64,000 bases of DNA. Origin: Candidatus Saccharibacteria bacterium CPR2 (GTDB taxonomy: Bacteria; Patescibacteriota; Saccharimonadia; Saccharimonadales; QWHN01). The DNA lies in the NCBI GenBank assembly GCA_021404905.1, contig QWHN01000002.1, positions 77,582 through 141,581 of the forward strand, written 5' to 3'. The notes below the pieces were generated by a model. It worked only from the letters and a program-made list of their open reading frames with translations, ran no database searches and had not been told where the DNA came from. Positions 44,457 to 53,521 of this stretch are shown here, piece by piece. Position 1 is the first letter of the stretch. Every line of letters begins with the position of its first letter. The translations under genes were made by a program, and so were the position numbers.

Positions 44457-44502
44457 AACTTACCCTAAACATTTGTAAGCAAACACCGAAAAACCATATA
44501 AT

Positions 44503-45276
44503 ATGCTTATGCATGTTATTGGGATTACGGGCGCCATAGGGCATGGCAAGTCTACGCTGGCAAAATATCTACTGGACGACGTGGGTAGTGGCCGAATCAT
44601 TGAAACTTCTGAAGATATTGTTTCGGTTGCAAATAATTGGCTTAGATTTTTGCCAGAATCACTCAAAACCAATCCTCCCGGCTATGAGTTACTAAACGAC
44701 TGGATAGACTCACTCGCGGACGTCATAAGGAGAGAAGGTTTAGGCGATATAAATGCGAAAAAACTCCACGTAAGTGAGCTGCAAATTGAATCGAGAGAGC
44801 AATCGATCTTAAAATTATTAGAATATCTCGAAAATATTAGAACTGGAACAGTAGCGTCGAATGAAATTATTGGCGCCCATAATAAAGACAACCATAGGCC
44901 CATTCTACAGTGGATTGGCGGTTATTTAGTAAAACACTATCACGAGGGAATATGGTTCGATGCAATAAATAAAAAGATTCAACAAGCTGGCTCTGATGGT
45001 TTAAAGCTCACGCTCGTGTGTGGTGTACGATTTTTATATGACATGAAAGTCATAAAAGATAATCAAGGCGTAGTTGTAAAAATTGAGAGACCTTCCACTA
45101 TGGTGGCCGATAGCAATGAAGTCACTGAAAAGGAACGCGCCTACTTAACACCAGACACCACGGTACTCAACGACTCCGGTCTAAACGCGCTCCACGAAAC
45201 TGCGAAAGTACTCTATGACGACATCTCAAGCAAGCATCTTTTAGAAAAATACGTTTGCTCCGATTTTGCAGATTAG
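44503..45276 (+). CDS. P-loop nucleotide kinase-like protein (CoaE/dNMP-kinase-like N-terminus)
   Basis: VIGITGAIGHGKSTLAKYL is a Walker A at the extreme N-terminus. TATAAT (44497-44502) abuts the first ATG, so the second ATG at 44509 is the likely leaderless start. Confidence 0.55.
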   Translation: MLMHVIGITGAIGHGKSTLAKYLLDDVGSGRIIETSEDIVSVANNWLRFLPESLKTNPPGYELLNDWIDSLADVIRREGLGDINAKKLHVSELQIESREQSILKLLEYLENIRTGTVASNEIIGAHNKDNHRPILQWIGGYLVKHYHEGIWFDAINKKIQQAGSDGLKLTLVCGVRFLYDMKVIKDNQGVVVKIERPSTMVADSNEVTEKERAYLTPDTTVLNDSGLNALHETAKVLYDDISSKHLLEKYVCSDFAD

Positions 45277-45366
45277 CTCTTAGTTCCTAAAAATAACGCT
45301 TGTGCTTGCTCATAGTTTCTGGTTTAAAGTAGACTATTCTTAGTATTTATGGGGGAGTATCGCGCC

Positions 45367-46056
45367 ATGCCGGGGGTGTATAGTAATATCGAAATAAAAA
45401 ATGCCATTAGAGAAGGCCACATAGTATTTCATCCTTATATAGAAGAAAATATTAATGGCAGCAGCATAGACGTTACTCTGGGTTATTGGTACTACAGAAC
45501 AGAGCGTACCAGTAACAAAGGCGTGTATAATCCGCTTGATGAAGACGATGTTTACAGATATTTTGAAGGGCCACACCACGCTGAAACTCATAGTCTTTGG
45601 TGTGAAAAAAATCAGCGCTCACTTTTTAAAAATATTCCCGAAGACCACCCAATTATAGTTTTGCAACCAGGCGAGAGAATTCTTGCCCACACACATGAAT
45701 TTATCGGGATCCGTGCGCCAGGCACCAGTACAATGCAGGCTCGCTCTACGTGGGGTAGAAATGGTGTTGCCGTTTGTCTTGACGCGGGCTGGGGCGACCC
45801 GGGGTATATCAACCGTTGGACTATGGAAATTTATAATATGAACCAGCACGAATGCGTTGTGCTGCCGGTAGGCGAAAGAGTAGCGCAAATGGTTTTTTAT
45901 CAAACAGGACCGGTTGAGGGAGAGTACAGTCAACTCAGTGGTAAGTATCAAGCCAGTAAAGATTCTGATTTAAAAGAAATTATCCGCACCTGGAAACCGC
46001 AGCAGATGTTACCACGCGCGTATAAAGACAAAAGAATGAGGCCGCTAGATGTCTGA
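45367..46056 (+). CDS. dcd: dCTP deaminase / dUTPase-superfamily protein
   Basis: ORF 45349..46056 with the start at ATG 45367 (GGGGGAG SD 9 nt upstream). NGSSIDVTLG and GWGDPGY..RWTMEIYN resemble Dcd blocks. 8-nt overlap with the next gene. Confidence 0.75.
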   Translation: MPGVYSNIEIKNAIREGHIVFHPYIEENINGSSIDVTLGYWYYRTERTSNKGVYNPLDEDDVYRYFEGPHHAETHSLWCEKNQRSLFKNIPEDHPIIVLQPGERILAHTHEFIGIRAPGTSTMQARSTWGRNGVAVCLDAGWGDPGYINRWTMEIYNMNQHECVVLPVGERVAQMVFYQTGPVEGEYSQLSGKYQASKDSDLKEIIRTWKPQQMLPRAYKDKRMRPLDV

Positions 46057-48325
46057 CAATGCGTTGAGAGGGAAGTATATAGTTCTCGAGGGTGGTGAAG
46101 GTGTTGGGAAAAGTACCCAGATAGATATGCTTTCTAAAGCCCTTTCGATACTTAATATTCCAAATGTTGTAATGCGCGAGCCTGGTAGCGCTCCTTTTGC
46201 CGTAGAACTTAGAAAAATTTTAAAAACCGGCCCAAAACGCAGTTCTACGGCGAATCTATTCGCATTTAACGCCGCCAGGGCGGAATCTTTATTGGAAATA
46301 TCCAAACACCTGGACCAAGGAACATGGGTCTTAAGTGATCGAAGTTATTTATCAACCATAGCTTATCAGGGACATGCTGAAGGCTTACCCCTGGGCGAAG
46401 TGCGCCAGATATGCGAGCTAGCGGTAAAAGACACTCACCCAGATTTAACGCTAATTCTTGACGCGGATCCAAAAGAATTAGCTGATCGTTTGCGAGATAG
46501 AGATAATCATGATGATTATTTCGAAAGCCTGGGGCTGGATTTTCACAGAAAAGTGCGTAGCGGTTATATCACCGAAGCGAGTAGGTTGGAACTACCCATT
46601 GTAAACGCGCTCAATAACACCCAGCAAGTACATGAAGATATCTGGAAACACGTTTTTAAAATTATTCCCAAATCTACTTTAATGGCCCACAATCCCGACA
46701 TAAAGCCAAGCAAAAAAGACTCGGATGTAAATTATGTTATTAAAGATGAGAATGGTAATTTCCAAATTACCCCTGAAGGCCATCAATATCTAGAGAAAGT
46801 TGTTACTAACACTTCCGACAACGTCTATGCGTTTACGGATGAGCTAAGCAACGTAACAGTTGCTGCCGCTATGGCAAGATTGTCTCGTCGTCAAGACGAT
46901 ATGAGGGTGACGATTTTAGATGAGTTTGTTGGCAGAAAAGGTAAAGATGAAGACCTGCTAAAACGTGTTATTACGGCATACGGTGATGACTCGGTGCAAC
47001 AACTTACCGGAATTCATGTGGTTGTAGAGTCGGCATCAAATCTTCTGACGAAAAAGCTTGAATGGGGCAGACTGGCAGCATACCTCGAGCAATCAACAAG
47101 ATACATTTATTTTGATCAAAAAGACGAACGGGGCAATTTTAAGTACTACACGCCAGTCAATCTCGATGCAAAATTGGCGAAAGAATACGAAGCAAAAATG
47201 AACAAAATTTTTGAAAAATATTCGATTATAGTACATAAGCTTACCGAATTTGTTCGTTCCAGCTCTGACGTCCCCCAAGACGAACGCGATATGGCCTGGA
47301 AGGGCGCTACTAAAGCGCAGGCTTGCGACGCTGCCAGAGGGCTGCTTCCTGTGGCTACCAAGTCTACCGTGGGCATATTCGCGTCCGGCCAGGCAATCGA
47401 GAGCTTAATTATGCACCTTCAAAGTGAAAAATTAGATGAATTTAAAATCACCGGAGATAAAATACTCACAGAGGCTAGAAAAGTAGTTCCTTCTTTTCTC
47501 GAACGAGCCGATAAACCTGACAGGGGCGGAGCGATGATAGCTTACAAGGCAGAAACTTTCGCTAAAGTACGAAAACTTTCCCGAGAATATTTGCCTCAAT
47601 CTCTCAGCCCATCTCCAACACAGGACGCTCTGCTCATAAACTACACACCAAGAAATGAACTTGAGCTTATACCATATATGCTCTACGAGCACAGCAATCT
47701 ATCCATACCAGAGCTTGAACACGAGATATCAAACTGGCCGTATGAACGTAAACTAAAAGTGTTTAAGACATACATTGGCGAACGATTGAACCGTCGCCAC
47801 AAACCAGGGCGAGCTTTTGAGCAAGCGCATTACAGTTGGGATCTTGTTTGCGACTACGGCATATTCCGAGATCTCCAGAGACATAGGATGGTCGACGACT
47901 TAGCCTGGCAGGAACTCACACCGAGATACGGCTATGACATTCCAAAGCTAATTGAGGATGCGAACTTGAGCGAATTATTTGAAGATTGTTTTGATATCAG
48001 CTACCAACTTTACAGCCAAATGCAGGAAGCAGGCTATGAACTTGAGGCTCAATACGCAACGCTACTGGGGCATAGAATGCGCTGGAAAGTTACCTATAAT
48101 GCCAGAGAAGCCTTTCATTTGCACGAACTAAGAACCGCTCCGCAAGGGCACCCTGGTTATCGCAAACTTGTTAAAACCATGCATGACAAAATCGCTGAGA
48201 TCCATCCGCTCACAGCATCAGGCATGAAGTTTATAAATAAGGATGAAGACCCCAAGCTAACCAGACTCGCAGCCGAGCGTTACAGCCAATTTAAATTAAA
48301 AGAGCTTGACAGAAAGACTAAATAG
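46049..48325 (+). CDS. apparent fusion: thymidylate kinase (N-terminal ~205 aa) + long ThyX-type flavin-dependent thymidylate synthase
   Basis: N-terminus KYIVLEGGEGVGKSTQ...DRSYLSTIAYQG (Tmk P-loop and DRY-like). C-terminus FRDLQRHRMVDD...LTPRYG (RHR at 47879-47887) and FHLHELRTAPQGHPGYR (ThyX blocks). One uninterrupted 758-codon frame. Confidence 0.75.
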   Translation: MSDNALRGKYIVLEGGEGVGKSTQIDMLSKALSILNIPNVVMREPGSAPFAVELRKILKTGPKRSSTANLFAFNAARAESLLEISKHLDQGTWVLSDRSYLSTIAYQGHAEGLPLGEVRQICELAVKDTHPDLTLILDADPKELADRLRDRDNHDDYFESLGLDFHRKVRSGYITEASRLELPIVNALNNTQQVHEDIWKHVFKIIPKSTLMAHNPDIKPSKKDSDVNYVIKDENGNFQITPEGHQYLEKVVTNTSDNVYAFTDELSNVTVAAAMARLSRRQDDMRVTILDEFVGRKGKDEDLLKRVITAYGDDSVQQLTGIHVVVESASNLLTKKLEWGRLAAYLEQSTRYIYFDQKDERGNFKYYTPVNLDAKLAKEYEAKMNKIFEKYSIIVHKLTEFVRSSSDVPQDERDMAWKGATKAQACDAARGLLPVATKSTVGIFASGQAIESLIMHLQSEKLDEFKITGDKILTEARKVVPSFLERADKPDRGGAMIAYKAETFAKVRKLSREYLPQSLSPSPTQDALLINYTPRNELELIPYMLYEHSNLSIPELEHEISNWPYERKLKVFKTYIGERLNRRHKPGRAFEQAHYSWDLVCDYGIFRDLQRHRMVDDLAWQELTPRYGYDIPKLIEDANLSELFEDCFDISYQLYSQMQEAGYELEAQYATLLGHRMRWKVTYNAREAFHLHELRTAPQGHPGYRKLVKTMHDKIAEIHPLTASGMKFINKDEDPKLTRLAAERYSQFKLKELDRKTK

Positions 48326-48508: not shown

Positions 48509-49750
48509 ATGAATAGAGTTGAACAACAAATATATCCCGAACAACAAGTGGCAAACACTGACAGCTTTCAGATATCAGTGGATGATTCTATGACTTTGCC
48601 GGAACTAAGGGATATGGATGAAAAATTCGCAGTTTTCAGAACCAGCCACGTTGGCAACCATTACCCTGCGAACCTCGCTTGGTATGGACTAGGGGGAAGA
48701 ACATACACATATGACCGCACCATCAACGGTGTAGATAACAATTACCATCCCGACATGTTAATAAAGAACAACGCCGCACAAAGGTTATATGGTTCCTCGG
48801 ACCAAGAAGTTGGTATTCTGACAACACACGCTCGTATTGAGAATATTTTGCAAGATTCTCCCGTAGAAATTCGCTTGGGAATGTTGGCGCTTCAATTACA
48901 CACCGAGTCGTTACAATCGGCTTTTCCATACACAATTATCAAAACACACTCTGATCACATACGAGACAATCAGGACGTAATTGATGAAACCATAACATTA
49001 CTGCACAATGCAGGCTACAGTGATCAATACAGACGCTGCGTTAATGAATTTGGTGAAGTTAGCGATATAGCGAACCCCGAGGAAGCCATCCGTAAACAAG
49101 GTATTTACTCAGTTAATGGACGTGATGAAACCGGAGTTTTAATGTCCAACGAGCACAATTTTATCATCTATGGTATTACCGAGGCTCTGCGAACAGGCAA
49201 CGGAACTATGTACCATCTTTCAGGTCCAGACATGGTAAAGTACGCGTCGTCGCTATCCGACAGATTAGGCCAGCAATATACCTATCTTCGTGAGAAGGCC
49301 AGTTTTGGTAAAGATTTGCCTGAAAAAATAGATATGCGAATAGTGCCTACTGCGGGAGCTCGTTTTGTTGTACGCGCTGCCCTGAAAGATCAACTGGACG
49401 CATTGGTAGATACTTATGAGACGCATAGTATTGAAGAGGAAATTGCTCAAGAACAAGCACGTGCCGTATTTACTGATCCTGATCTCTCCGAAGAAGAAAA
49501 AAAATTATACGCAAAAAGAAGTAGAGAGGAAAAACAAGTCCGCATACTTGAGTTCGATAGCTTAATCCAGGCCAATGCCGATATATTTACCGGGATCCAA
49601 AATGCAAATTTCGTTTCGCATTATGATCATCTGAAAGAAGATGGCGTATATGTGCACCCGGTCATATATGAAAAACCGCTTAGTAAACTAAACGCCATGT
49701 ATGACACACTCGCCAAACGCGCAAAAAAATTGTTGAAAAATAGAGAATAA
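48509..49750 (+). CDS. hypothetical protein, 413 aa, no family recognised
   Basis: Long clean ORF and the first gene of a tightly packed three-gene unit. No signal peptide, TM helix or catalytic motif that I can name. Confidence 0.7.
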   Translation: MNRVEQQIYPEQQVANTDSFQISVDDSMTLPELRDMDEKFAVFRTSHVGNHYPANLAWYGLGGRTYTYDRTINGVDNNYHPDMLIKNNAAQRLYGSSDQEVGILTTHARIENILQDSPVEIRLGMLALQLHTESLQSAFPYTIIKTHSDHIRDNQDVIDETITLLHNAGYSDQYRRCVNEFGEVSDIANPEEAIRKQGIYSVNGRDETGVLMSNEHNFIIYGITEALRTGNGTMYHLSGPDMVKYASSLSDRLGQQYTYLREKASFGKDLPEKIDMRIVPTAGARFVVRAALKDQLDALVDTYETHSIEEEIAQEQARAVFTDPDLSEEEKKLYAKRSREEKQVRILEFDSLIQANADIFTGIQNANFVSHYDHLKEDGVYVHPVIYEKPLSKLNAMYDTLAKRAKKLLKNRE

Positions 49751-49753
49751 AAA

Positions 49754-50542
49754 ATGAGCCAACAAAACGCTGTATTTCAAAAAAAATTCATTAATACTTT
49801 CGAGGAACTCAAAAAAATACCCGTTCGCGAAAGATGGCAATATTATTTGGCCAGGTCTTTACTTTCTCAAAAAAAGGGATTCATTTTACAGAACGAAGCA
49901 CTCGTTACTCGAAAAGAGATTGAAGCCGGCGGCGTTCTTTGCCAGCCTTTTTGGGAAGATTCCACATTAAATATTGACAGCGAGGGCAGGGCATTTAGCC
50001 GCTACCGCTCTCTTCATAAAGATTTTGACATTATGCTGCGCAAAACTGCTTTTGAAAAGCTGCTGCGCGCTAATGAGCTATTACCAAACCATATAAAAAT
50101 AGTTTTAAAAGCTTCACTTCGGCCAATTTCCGTACAGCAAGAAGTTTTTGATGAAGAATTTAAAAATGCCAAAATTAAATTTCCTGATAAAAGCTACGAT
50201 GAAATTTACAATTATACGCTTCAGTTCGTAACAGACCCGAAAGTCAACATTCCGCCTCATGCAACTGGAGGAGCTATTGACATTGTGCTTTATGATACAA
50301 AAGCTAAAAGCTATCTTGACATGGGTAATCCGGTGAATAGTATAGACGATCTTTCCTGGACATCGAATTTTATAGGATTAACAGATGCTCAAATCTCAAA
50401 TCGAAAGCTAATAACAACTACAATGCTTGAAGCTGGTTTTGCCAGTTTAGCTTCCGAATGGTGGCATTACAGCTACGGTGATCAACGCTGGGCAGTATAT
50501 TATGATCAATCGCAAGCATCATATGGAGCCGCAAATGTTTAG
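49754..50542 (+). CDS. D-alanyl-D-alanine dipeptidase-like (VanX/DdpX, peptidase M15D)
   Basis: PPHATGGAIDIVLYD and SEWWHYSYGD correspond to the VanX zinc-ligand/catalytic blocks (SxHxxGxAxD ... EWWH). Confidence 0.8.
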   Translation: MSQQNAVFQKKFINTFEELKKIPVRERWQYYLARSLLSQKKGFILQNEALVTRKEIEAGGVLCQPFWEDSTLNIDSEGRAFSRYRSLHKDFDIMLRKTAFEKLLRANELLPNHIKIVLKASLRPISVQQEVFDEEFKNAKIKFPDKSYDEIYNYTLQFVTDPKVNIPPHATGGAIDIVLYDTKAKSYLDMGNPVNSIDDLSWTSNFIGLTDAQISNRKLITTTMLEAGFASLASEWWHYSYGDQRWAVYYDQSQASYGAANV

Positions 50543-51320
50543 TTTTAAGAAAGAAACAATAGTTGGCATAGTCGGCGGAATGGGTCCAGCCGCGAGTAAT
50601 AAACTTCTGGAACTAATAACTGATAACACTAATGTGCATTCCGATCAGGAACATATAAAGTTGCTTATGTTTAGCAATCCGCAAATTCCTGACAGAAGTG
50701 CATATTTGTTGGAAAATCAAGAAAATCCTAGCAACGAAATAATTAAAAGTATAAAAAAACTCAAGAAAGCTGGAGCAACTCACGCAGCGCTTGCGTGCAA
50801 TACTGCACATGCGCCAAAAATTTTTAATAAAGTATTGTGTCGCAGCCCTATCCCAATAATTAACATGGTTGAGTTAACAGTTGAAAAACTACGCAAACAA
50901 CATGGCGATTTGAAAACTAAAGTTTGTGTGCTTGGGACAACGGGAACTATTAAATCTGAAATTTATGATTGTTACCTAAAGCAGTTCAATTTCCAACCCG
51001 TGAAGCTTTCATCTGATGATCAGGATTCAATAATGAGAACCATATATGAAATTAAGCGAACTGGTGTTATGAGGATTCATGAAAAGACGCTTGAAGATAT
51101 CATGAAACGCGTTCAAGCTAATGAAAATTGTGACAACTTTATTTTGGGATGCACGGAACTTAGTTTGCTCAATATATCTCAACCCATTCAAATAATAGAT
51201 CCGCTCAGGATATTAGCTGAAGATATCGTCTATCTTTCACGCGCCAAAGAAAAGAAGCAACCACATAAACGTGTAGCTCGACTTTTTTCTTCAGTTATGA
51301 GAGAGAAGATAGTTCGATAG
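50535..51320 (+). CDS. aspartate/glutamate racemase family protein
   Basis: ORF 50478..51320 trimmed to ATG 50535 (GGAG upstream, 8-nt overlap with the previous gene). GIVGGMGPAAS, LACNTAHA and LGCTELS (two catalytic Cys). Confidence 0.85.
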   Translation: MFSFKKETIVGIVGGMGPAASNKLLELITDNTNVHSDQEHIKLLMFSNPQIPDRSAYLLENQENPSNEIIKSIKKLKKAGATHAALACNTAHAPKIFNKVLCRSPIPIINMVELTVEKLRKQHGDLKTKVCVLGTTGTIKSEIYDCYLKQFNFQPVKLSSDDQDSIMRTIYEIKRTGVMRIHEKTLEDIMKRVQANENCDNFILGCTELSLLNISQPIQIIDPLRILAEDIVYLSRAKEKKQPHKRVARLFSSVMREKIVR

Positions 51321-51492: not shown

Positions 51493-52254
51493 TTATACAT
51501 CCTTATTCTGTTCTTCTTTACGCTTTGTTTTGTGATATTGCATCATATCATCAGCTTCGCTTATACAGCCTTTTAACGTCTCGCCGGATTTTTTTACTGC
51601 GAATCCCATAGATACACCGGGTTGAAAGTACCTTGGATCTTTCCCGGACTCTATTATTCCCCGTCTAACTTCTTCCAGCTCGGAAAATTCCTCGACATCC
51701 ACCGCCTTCTCATACCTTTCAAAAACAACATTTATCGTATCTTCATCAACCCCAAGCAAAACAACCAAAAATTCGTCTCCCCCGTATCGCGCAACTATAT
51801 CGCCTTGACGAGTGACCTCCGCAATTTTTTGAGCGACAGTCCGCAAGTAAGCGTCGCCGTGTTTTGACCCGCATTTTTTATTCAATATCCCTAAGCTGTC
51901 AACGTCTATAAAAATAATTGAGACGGCATCACCGGTTCTACTTCCGGATTCAAGCGGATATACGCTTTCCAGGCGGGATAATTCGTATTGCCTGAAGTAC
52001 TGGTTTGACATAACACCGGTAGTCGGATCTATGGATGCCTCTTCAAGAATCATTTCTTGCATCTTTACTAGAGCGGTCGTTATCGCATGAACTCCTTCAG
52101 GACCTTCATTCTCTACTAAATGCTTAATGAATTTTTTCCTAGCTTCTGGTTCTAATTTGGTAAATTCATCCGCTAGCACCTGTAAGGCACCCTCAACACT
52201 TATGGCTTCTAATGCCTCTTCTTCTGCCGCGTTTTTTTCAGGAATATCGAGCAT
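51493..52254 (-). CDS. diguanylate cyclase (GGDEF domain with RxxD I-site)
   Basis: RQGDIVARYGGDEFLVVL, DPTTGVMSNQYF and ~85-aa acidic N-terminal region. Confidence 0.9.
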   Translation of the reverse strand: MLDIPEKNAAEEEALEAISVEGALQVLADEFTKLEPEARKKFIKHLVENEGPEGVHAITTALVKMQEMILEEASIDPTTGVMSNQYFRQYELSRLESVYPLESGSRTGDAVSIIFIDVDSLGILNKKCGSKHGDAYLRTVAQKIAEVTRQGDIVARYGGDEFLVVLLGVDEDTINVVFERYEKAVDVEEFSELEEVRRGIIESGKDPRYFQPGVSMGFAVKKSGETLKGCISEADDMMQYHKTKRKEEQNKDV

Positions 52255-52534: not shown

Positions 52535-53065
52535 ATGGCAATTAGCAAAGATAAGAAACAAGAGATTGTCAGCGATCTAAGCGATCTATTCTCCTCGTCT
52601 AAAATGACTGTTTTTGCTCAGTATAAAGGTGTAAGCGTAAAAGAACTTCAGGAACTTAGGAAATCCGCGAAAGAAGGCTCAACCTTTTTAAGAGTTAGCA
52701 AAAACAGACTGGTTAAACTTGCTCTAAAGGATGTCGACAACCTAAAAGACACTGAAGCGGATATCTTGAGCGGACAGTTGCTCTATGCGTTTAACGCCGA
52801 AGATGAAGTAGCTCCGGCGCAAACATTGGCGCAGTTCGCAAAGAATCATCCCAACTTAATGTTAAGGGGCGCGATCGATAGCCATGGGGTAGTTTTAGAC
52901 GAGCAGGCAGTTAAACAACTTGCGGACCTCCCAACTAAGGATCAACTCAGGGCTCAGGTTGTCGGCACTATCGCGGCACCGCTTAGCAGCTTCGTCCAAG
53001 TTCTTTCTGGTAACTTGCGCGGGTTCATAACGGTCTTAAACGCAAGAGCGGAAAAAATTCAATAA
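52535..53065 (+). CDS. rplJ: 50S ribosomal protein L10
   Basis: The N-terminus KDKKQEIVSDLSDLFSSSKMTVFAQYKGVSVKELQELRK is typical L10. Followed by rplL. Confidence 0.96.
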   Translation: MAISKDKKQEIVSDLSDLFSSSKMTVFAQYKGVSVKELQELRKSAKEGSTFLRVSKNRLVKLALKDVDNLKDTEADILSGQLLYAFNAEDEVAPAQTLAQFAKNHPNLMLRGAIDSHGVVLDEQAVKQLADLPTKDQLRAQVVGTIAAPLSSFVQVLSGNLRGFITVLNARAEKIQ

Positions 53066-53089
53066 AATTTAATCTATAAGGAGAAACTA

Positions 53090-53521
53090 ATGTCTGAAGA
53101 AGATAAGAAAGTTAAAGAAGAAAAAACCCAAATTCCAAAAAAATTTGAAAAATTAGTTAAAGAAATTGAATCCTTAAGCGCGCTCGAACTTAGCGAGCTC
53201 GTAAAAGTTCTTGAAGACCACTTTGGCGTTTCCGCAGCCGCACCCGTAGCCGTAGCAGCTCCCGCAGCCAACGGCGGCGCGGATGCAGGCGACGGCGCAG
53301 CTGAAGCTAAAAGCGAGTTTGATTTGGTTCTTAAGGACGCAGGCGCTCAAAAAGTTGCCGTTATCAAGGCTGTCAAAGAAATTACCGGCCTTGGACTAGG
53401 CGAGAGCAAAGCAATCGTTGATGGCGCGCCAAAGACAGTTAAAGAATCAATGAGCAAGGATGAAGCTGAAGCTGCCAAGAAAAAACTTGAAGAAGCTGGC
53501 GCTACAGTCGAATTGAGCTAA
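53090..53521 (+). CDS. rplL: 50S ribosomal protein L7/L12
   Basis: Ala-rich hinge, then [43 protein letters not shown]. Confidence 0.97.

Follow-up and report, generated by a model that had tools for sequence, protein, structure and literature searches.

A thymidylate kinase fused to a tandem ThyX in a conserved locus of environmental Saccharibacteria

The window analysed here is a stretch of 64,000 nt from contig QWHN01000002.1 of Candidatus Saccharibacteria bacterium CPR2, and it carries, at positions 44503-48325 of the + strand, a block of three co-directional genes, the last of which encodes a thymidylate kinase (Tmk) and a flavin-dependent thymidylate synthase of the ThyX type in one polypeptide. 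We show that this Tmk::ThyX fusion is real, ancient and conserved, with both enzyme folds present, and that its ThyX part is, by its profile matches, a tandem duplication of two Thy1 domains rather than one long ThyX. The two ThyX repeats appear to have divided the active-site roles cleanly between them, which we consider the new point of this work. We think it likely that environmental Saccharibacteria have, in the 758-amino-acid (aa) protein, a true bifunctional enzyme consisting of Tmk, a flexible linker and a two-repeat ThyX, and that 1:1 co-expression is the likeliest benefit of the arrangement. The fusion is an unstudied variant of known enzymes. Current understanding is not overturned by it, as both enzymes, duplicated ThyX and the fusing of pathway neighbours were all known.

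An earlier note on this DNA, made from the sequence letters, had proposed that the three genes form a dTTP-supply module made up of a P-loop kinase, a dCTP deaminase and a Tmk-ThyX fusion. Its gene layout agrees with the open reading frames (ORFs) at 44503-45276 (257 aa), 45349-46056 (235 aa) and 46049-48325 (758 aa), and the module itself is upheld by homology, by synteny and by a confident fold model, as detailed below.

A kinase and a synthase in one reading frame

The third ORF is a single uninterrupted frame of 758 codons. Its residues 1-205 (46049-46663) are a thymidylate kinase, for which the sequence predicts the activity dTMP + ATP -> dTDP. The domain matches Pfam Thymidylate_kin (PF02223, a profile of 185 positions) over residues 13-198 with 119.4 bits (cut-off 27), and it passes the dTMP-kinase equivalog model TIGR00041 with 127.6 bits against 83.25; both scores bear out the earlier assignment of the first ~205 residues to a thymidylate kinase with a P-loop. 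Residues 1-205 also align end to end with bacterial Tmk enzymes of the PDB (E. coli, 4TMK; S. aureus, 4DWJ) at about 1e-22. Tmk proteins are characterized by a P-loop of the form GxxxxGK[ST], a DR[YHS] motif and the arginines of the LID. The catalytic motifs are intact in the CPR2 domain: the P-loop reads LEGGEGVGKST at residues 13-23, and in an alignment of 14 sequences of the Saccharibacteria family G15, G18, G20, K21, R147 and R151 are invariant and R98 is nearly so. What sets the CPR2 domain apart from the bacterial enzymes is that it is covalently joined to a thymidylate synthase. In the AlphaFold2 (AF2) model of the full-length protein the kinase domain has a predicted local distance difference test score (pLDDT) of about 90, and the linker that follows (about residues 206-227; 46664-46729), delimited by the family alignment and by the AF2 confidence, falls below 50 at residues 215-225. 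Between genomes the linker ranges from about 25 to 90 residues and differs in sequence as well, and the insertions and deletions that separate relatives in the family alignment all keep the frame.

Thirteen contigs from NCBI and Logan assemblies encode the identical 758-aa protein, whose NCBI name is 'dTMP kinase [Candidatus Saccharibacteria bacterium CPR2]'. The best 120 protein matches are 55-83% identical to it (one fragment is identical), nearly all of them span 98-100% of the query, and nearly all carry PF02223 together with the ThyX family Thy1 (PF02511), a co-occurrence that had been named earlier as a check on the fusion. A scan of one genome per species revealed a relative in at least 581 species genomes. 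Loci were compared in the best 80 of these, mostly metagenome-assembled genomes (MAGs) titled Saccharibacteria or Saccharimonadales, and in all 80 Tmk and ThyX lie in one frame without an internal stop. In three loci an in-frame stop seemed at first to separate the two parts; on inspection it was the terminal stop codon each time.

Searched exhaustively, 1.84 billion cluster representatives gave 3425 clusters at E ≤1e-3, of which 677 at E ≤1e-30. The best 150 clusters are mostly stand-alone proteins of about 505-560 aa, and those with names are called ThyX or FAD-dependent thymidylate synthase, e.g. in Candidatus Dormibacteria. These stand-alone duplicated ThyX proteins are homologous over their full length to the ThyX part (32-54% identity) and display the same complementary residue pattern described in the next section, but they have no N-terminal kinase. 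The ThyX of Chlamydia (~529 aa), which has reportedly been assayed biochemically, may also be of this tandem type. Among the 41 representatives with extra terminal sequence, which is mostly N-terminal, 36 carry a Tmk domain, and these fall into separate clusters at 50% identity. As the identity of the ThyX part of relatives to the CPR2 protein falls to about 32-47%, and as the fusion occupies 36 clusters, it must be old and diversified rather than a one-off event. Furthermore, two proteins of distinct sequence and different sources (P0022, 1007 aa; P0088, 999 aa) are triple fusions of the order Tmk-Dcd-ThyX-ThyX, in which a dCTP deaminase (Dcd) sits inside the linker. Three other tandem ThyX representatives, P0126 (729 aa), P0125 (667 aa) and P0186 (717 aa), have N- or C-terminal extensions of 130-200 aa without any Pfam domain, which may be other fusion partners.

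The possibility that a missed stop or a frameshift had joined separate tmk and thyX genes, raised by the earlier note and lent some colour by the poor conservation of the linker at 46664-46729, is practically eliminated by the recurrence of the exact protein on 13 contigs, the single open frame in 80 of 80 related genomes, the 36 separate clusters that combine PF02223 with a tandem ThyX and the in-frame length differences of the linker, so that read pile-ups were not needed to decide the matter. The note had further known of no description of a Tmk-ThyX architecture. This holds for the literature, in that no description of the fusion was found in full texts, among which subscription journals were thinly covered. 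It does not hold for databases, where the architecture (a relative in at least 581 genomes, the fusion itself in 36 clusters) is already abundant under the label "dTMP kinase" and is therefore real but not new. Thousands of such proteins are named only in this way, and metabolic reconstructions that go by name will wrongly score thymidylate synthase as lacking.

Two diverged ThyX repeats

The remainder of the protein had been read earlier as a long ThyX, and its ThyX identity stands, with a Thy1 match and ThyX motifs at residues 611-627 and 692-701, whereas the notion of a single long domain does not. Thy1 matches the whole protein with 122.2 bits (cut-off 24.8) in two stretches, and each half scores on its own, residues 211-484 with 61.4 bits and residues 485-758 with 66.5 bits. 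Repeat 1 with its N-terminal lead-in thus covers about residues 228-484 (46730-47500), and repeat 2 covers residues 485-758 and the stop codon (47501-48325). With a profile built from 44 diverse tandem ThyX relatives, repeat 1 matches the ThyX of Mycobacterium tuberculosis (Mtb; 3gwc/2af6) at 7e-13 and repeat 2 matches that of Thermotoga maritima at about 1e-4. The AF2 model of residues 211-758 made from a diverse alignment is confident (pLDDT 93.4; predicted TM-score, pTM, 0.89), and all 50 PDB matches listed by Foldseek for it are ThyX structures with target TM-scores of 0.61-0.74; the best of them, all single-domain ThyX, have a probability of 1.00, a target TM-score of about 0.7 and ~220 columns each. 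All solved ThyX chains found by the profile and Foldseek searches have 216-270 residues, and no tandem ThyX structure is among them. Compared with each other by hhalign, the repeats give a weak match that is nevertheless in register (E 9e-4, probability 23%). That is, the duplication is called because each repeat matches ThyX and not because the repeats match each other, and their slight mutual similarity indicates that the duplication is old. Domain-duplicated ThyX has been remarked on before in Chloroflexi, as 'not characterized' (Valas & Bourne 2009, PMC3224940).

The two repeats were mapped onto the Mtb and T. maritima enzymes through the profile alignments, and residues were counted in the 44 diverse tandem ThyX sequences. 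In repeat 1 the ThyX motif is degenerate: the segment LEWGRLAAYLEQSTRY (47057-47104), which aligns with Mtb ThyX residues 93-108, has WGR instead of RHR and keeps the X7-Ser-x-Arg-Tyr portion. In repeat 2 the corresponding segment, RHRMVDDLAWQELTPRY (residues 611-627; 47879-47929), has RHR-X10-Thr and not the canonical RHR-X7-Ser, and HELRTAPQGH follows at residues 692-701. The column counts display a complementary pattern. At Arg95-His96-Arg97 of Mtb, the RHR triplet, repeat 1 is variable in the first two positions (W339 and G340 in the CPR2 protein) with R341 invariant, and repeat 2 has R611 and R613 invariant and H612 in 42 of 44 sequences. Arg190 of Mtb corresponds to Q448 in repeat 1 of the CPR2 protein and to the invariant R686 in repeat 2, and Arg199 to a variable position in repeat 1 (H456 here) and to the invariant R695 in repeat 2. 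The reverse is seen for the dUMP loop (Gln103, Ser105, Arg107 and Tyr108 of Mtb), where repeat 1 has E347, S349 and R351 invariant and Y352 in 43 of 44 sequences, and repeat 2 is variable; likewise, Arg172 is represented by the invariant R430 in repeat 1 and mostly by Gln in repeat 2 (Q668 here). At Ser71 repeat 1 has the invariant S315, and repeat 2 has no Ser aligned. Taken across both repeats, every dUMP and FAD contact described for Mtb ThyX other than Arg87 is invariant or almost so (H612 in 42 of 44).

Such a pattern can be understood from the known structures. According to a review of the Mtb and Helicobacter pylori structures, three subunits contribute to each ThyX active site; in Mtb, subunit A provides the RHR motif and Arg199, subunit B provides Ser71 and Arg190, and subunit C provides Ser105, Arg107 and Tyr108 (PMC6514825). 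The same division of contacts between monomers has been described for the ThyX of PBCV-1 (PMC3498832). We infer that in the tandem protein repeat 2 supplies the arginines that bind FAD and uracil and repeat 1 supplies the dUMP loop. The complementary losses, set against the published three-subunit sites, point to a homodimer, or pseudo-tetramer, with two composite working sites and two dead ones, in place of a tetramer with four. Compared with the canonical homotetrameric ThyX (T. maritima TM0449, 1O26; Mtb, 2AF6/3GWC), the protein has the same fold, the same family (PF02511) and, across both repeats, the same conserved FAD and dUMP contacts, but it has two domains per chain, each without a complementary set of contacts, so that RHR is found only in repeat 2 and X7-S-x-R-Y only in repeat 1; it also scores below the TIGR02170 cut-off, and a dimer with two sites is predicted where the canonical enzyme is a tetramer with four.

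The division of roles predicts one FAD per chain. Moreover, the tandem ThyX can be seen as a natural experiment, in which the roles of three subunits have been assigned to two diverged repeats, and it could help to dissect what each subunit contributes. Bacterial Tmk is dimeric, and a dimeric ThyX would match it.

Proposed role of the block and alternative readings

The gene directly upstream of the fusion gene, dcd (45349-46056), encodes a dCTP deaminase family protein with a Pfam DCD (PF22769) match of 119.3 bits (2e-34; cut-off 27); with TIGR02274 it scores 91.0, 1.8 bits short of the cut-off of 92.8. As noted earlier, its stop codon (TGA, 46054-46056) overlaps the start of the fusion gene (ATG at 46049) by 8 nt. 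In all 80 loci compared the fusion gene is immediately preceded by a dcd gene, which usually overlaps it, and dcd and tmk::thyX-thyX form a conserved unit that is probably co-transcribed and translationally coupled. PDB matches of the Dcd protein are 4xjc (1.1e-14), 2qxx (1e-7), 1xs1 (3.5e-5) and 1ogh (1.7e-5), the last of which is labelled 'dUMP-forming'; 4xjc and 2qxx are bifunctional dUMP-forming enzymes as well. The CPR2 Dcd could possibly be of this bifunctional type and would then feed ThyX directly, which is a lead rather than a result.

The first gene of the block (44503-45276) encodes a P-loop protein that is, by its profile matches, a relative of the phage T4 gp1 deoxynucleoside monophosphate (dNMP) kinase, in line with the earlier suggestion of a further (d)NMP kinase. 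It matches phrog_139 ('deoxynucleoside monophosphate kinase') over residues 1-252 at 2.8e-18, and the best PDB match of its family profile is T4 dNMP kinase (1DEK, 3.4e-5). With Pfam DNMK (PF21448) it scores 26.0 bits, 1.1 short of the cut-off of 27.1, and most of its homologues carry a precomputed PF21448 assignment. Unlike the phage enzyme, the CPR2 protein is cellular and annotated as hypothetical, and its own PF21448 score is below the cut-off.

Comparison with Southlakia epibionticum ML1 bears on the function of the ThyX part. In the locus SEML1_0409-0412 a stand-alone tmk (654 nt) overlaps dcd, and a single hypothetical gene separates the pair from nearby rplJ, with ThyA and dihydrofolate reductase (DHFR) alongside (PMC10633639 supplement). 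The overlapping dcd-tmk pair near rplJ is thus shared with CPR2, but in Southlakia Tmk stands alone and the synthase is ThyA, with DHFR beside it. It looks as though ThyX had been displaced by ThyA plus DHFR at this locus, and such a displacement would be a good indirect argument for thymidylate as the product of the ThyX part. ThyX yields tetrahydrofolate rather than dihydrofolate and therefore needs no DHFR partner.

We propose that the gp1-like kinase would help to raise salvaged deoxycytidine nucleotides to dCTP, that Dcd would convert dCTP to dUMP or dUTP, that the tandem ThyX would turn dUMP into dTMP using CH2-THF (methylenetetrahydrofolate), NADPH and FAD, and that the tethered Tmk would phosphorylate dTMP to dTDP. 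The most likely benefit of the fusion would be a fixed 1:1 production of the two enzymes, together with their proximity, in a very small genome. According to published reports, Saccharibacteria and other Patescibacteria cannot synthesize nucleotides de novo (PMC10633639; PMC12592800). The block would show what Saccharibacteria keep, namely a compact way of making dTDP from deoxycytidine nucleotides, encoded inside the rplKA-rplJL cluster.

A number of points weigh against this reading. The catalytic activity of the fusion family is assigned by sequence and fold only. The thyX equivalog model TIGR02170 is failed with 51.4 bits against a cut-off of 87.9, so that the ThyX part falls outside the canonical single-domain type, and a single-sequence search of it against PDB sequences matched no solved ThyX; both results place it far from the characterized enzymes. 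The strict RHR-X7-S motif is found in neither repeat and is complete only across both, and the retention in repeat 1 of the equivalent of Ser71, a FAD contact of subunit B in Mtb, is not explained by a split into two roles. The AF2 model of the full-length protein made from the 14-sequence alignment is poor in the ThyX part (pLDDT 61.8, pTM 0.35) and contains no confident interface between kinase and synthase. The variable linker, which tolerates the insertion of a whole Dcd, speaks against a fixed channel or tunnel, and Dcd may yield either dUMP or dUTP. Finally, tmk, dcd, thyA and folA of Southlakia are all non-essential by transposon sequencing (Tn-seq) in co-culture (PMC10633639), from which it follows that related bacteria can get thymidine nucleotides otherwise, i.e. 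that salvage can substitute.

Beyond co-expression, the fusion could serve true channelling of dTMP, in which the composite ThyX sites would pass their product to the tethered kinase and, with Dcd, would make up a dCTP-to-dTDP metabolon. Such channelling is possible, though we judge it unlikely. The fusion has been kept across deep divergence, dcd overlaps the fusion gene, Tmk-Dcd-ThyX triple fusions exist, and a precedent is known in the bifunctional DHFR-thymidylate synthase of protozoa and plants, which has two consecutive enzymes of thymidylate metabolism in one polypeptide. The resemblance to the latter is one of logic only, as the enzymes (ThyA and DHFR) are unrelated and the pair of steps is a different one. 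However, the linker varies in length and composition and can accommodate an entire Dcd domain of 230 aa, the full-length model has no confident interdomain packing, in some Saccharibacteria Tmk stands alone, next to ThyA, and co-expression and stoichiometry suffice to explain why the fusion is retained. A fuller version, in which a homodimeric synthase-kinase with two composite sites (FAD in repeat 2, dUMP in repeat 1) would hand dTMP over directly and would form with Dcd a dCTP-to-dTDP metabolon, the only means by which environmental Saccharibacteria make thymidine nucleotides de novo, seems to us improbable.

It is likewise doubtful that the fused Tmk is not the main dTMP kinase, with the gp1-like kinase here, or a stand-alone Tmk elsewhere, doing most of the work and the fused domain having a narrower or regulatory role. 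T4 gp1 phosphorylates dTMP, and a gp1-like protein follows rplA in this genome and occupies the same place in 17 of the 80 related loci. Directly after rplA a stand-alone Tmk paralogue (PF02223, 209-215 aa) is present instead in L004 (2765-3394), L014 (2747-3388) and L036 (1808-2455), so that these genomes have two Tmk-type domains, and two separate Tmk-like places are seen in 17 of 71 loci; the non-essentiality of the Southlakia tmk could be read in the same direction. Against this, the fused domain keeps its P-loop, R98 and the LID arginines and scores well above the dTMP-kinase equivalog cut-off.

Much less probable is a ThyX-like part that is not a thymidylate synthase at all, being instead another flavin-dependent methylase (like the UMP methylase PolB) or a dead scaffold. 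The low TIGR02170 score and the absence of a strict RHR-X7-S from either repeat would fit this, as would the finding that repeat 1 has Asp where T. maritima ThyX has His53, and that repeat 2, in a tentative alignment, probably has Arg588 there; PolB-type homologues exist, and 4p5a is among the weak profile matches. Yet the Mtb dUMP and FAD contacts other than Arg87 are kept across the two repeats, dcd always precedes the gene, which is fused to Tmk, ThyA and DHFR stand in the corresponding neighbourhood when the ThyX part is missing, and several sources annotate the stand-alone tandem forms as ThyX. A bifunctional kinase and synthase therefore remains the reading that we prefer.

Surrounding genes and gene order

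The block separates rplA, the gene of ribosomal protein L1 (43488-44456; Pfam Ribosomal_L1 2.3e-59, residues 123-311), from rplJ/rplL (52535-53521), as had been pointed out earlier; the downstream boundary is rplJ (L10), at 52535-53065 (Pfam Ribosomal_L10 3.2e-21). Of the 80 related loci, 74 have L1 upstream of dcd and 65 have L10 on the downstream side. This placement between rplA and rplJ, common to most relatives, indicates that the block is ancestral in this group and not a recent insertion. Horizontal acquisition was considered and rejected, as base composition is unremarkable and the position of the block is shared by most of the 80 relatives.

The start of the first gene was reported earlier as leaderless. 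A promoter-like site, TTGTAA-18 nt-TATAAT (44473-44502; 10 of 12 consensus matches), indeed has its last base directly in front of the ATG at 44503; another ATG is found at 44509. The NCBI gene model ('hypothetical protein', 255 aa) starts at the latter, which is probably the true start, and the evidence is weak that the mRNA may be leaderless and begin at this ATG. While the adjoining site fits the leaderless reading, such sites are not enriched over shuffled sequence, which weakens it; the promoter and terminator scan found 5 sites where 8.8 were expected by shuffling and lent no support to operon boundaries.

Ribosomal protein L1 of this window is long (322 aa), with a Lys/Glu/Ala-rich N-terminal extension of ~120 aa before the Pfam L1 domain, which starts at residue 123, and the L1 ORFs of the related loci L004, L014 and L036 are likewise long (324-360 aa). 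On the 3′ side the fusion gene is adjoined by a 413-aa ORF (48509-49750) that has no Pfam or PHROG match at E 0.01 and no NCBIfam match. The space before rplJ further holds a gene for an M15 D-Ala-D-Ala dipeptidase-like protein (49754-50542), an Asp/Glu racemase gene (50478-51320) and, on the minus strand, a gene for a short GGDEF protein (51493-52254). The cargo between thyX and rplJ differs among loci, the racemase being found in one of the 80 related loci. Lastly, four MAGs labelled Burkholderiaceae, Dormiibacterota, Sulfotelmatobacter and Chlamydiae (L030, L034, L056 and L074) contain a full locus of the Saccharibacteria type (nusG-rplK-rplA...dcd-tmk::thyX...rplJ-rplL), and their contigs have probably been mis-binned.

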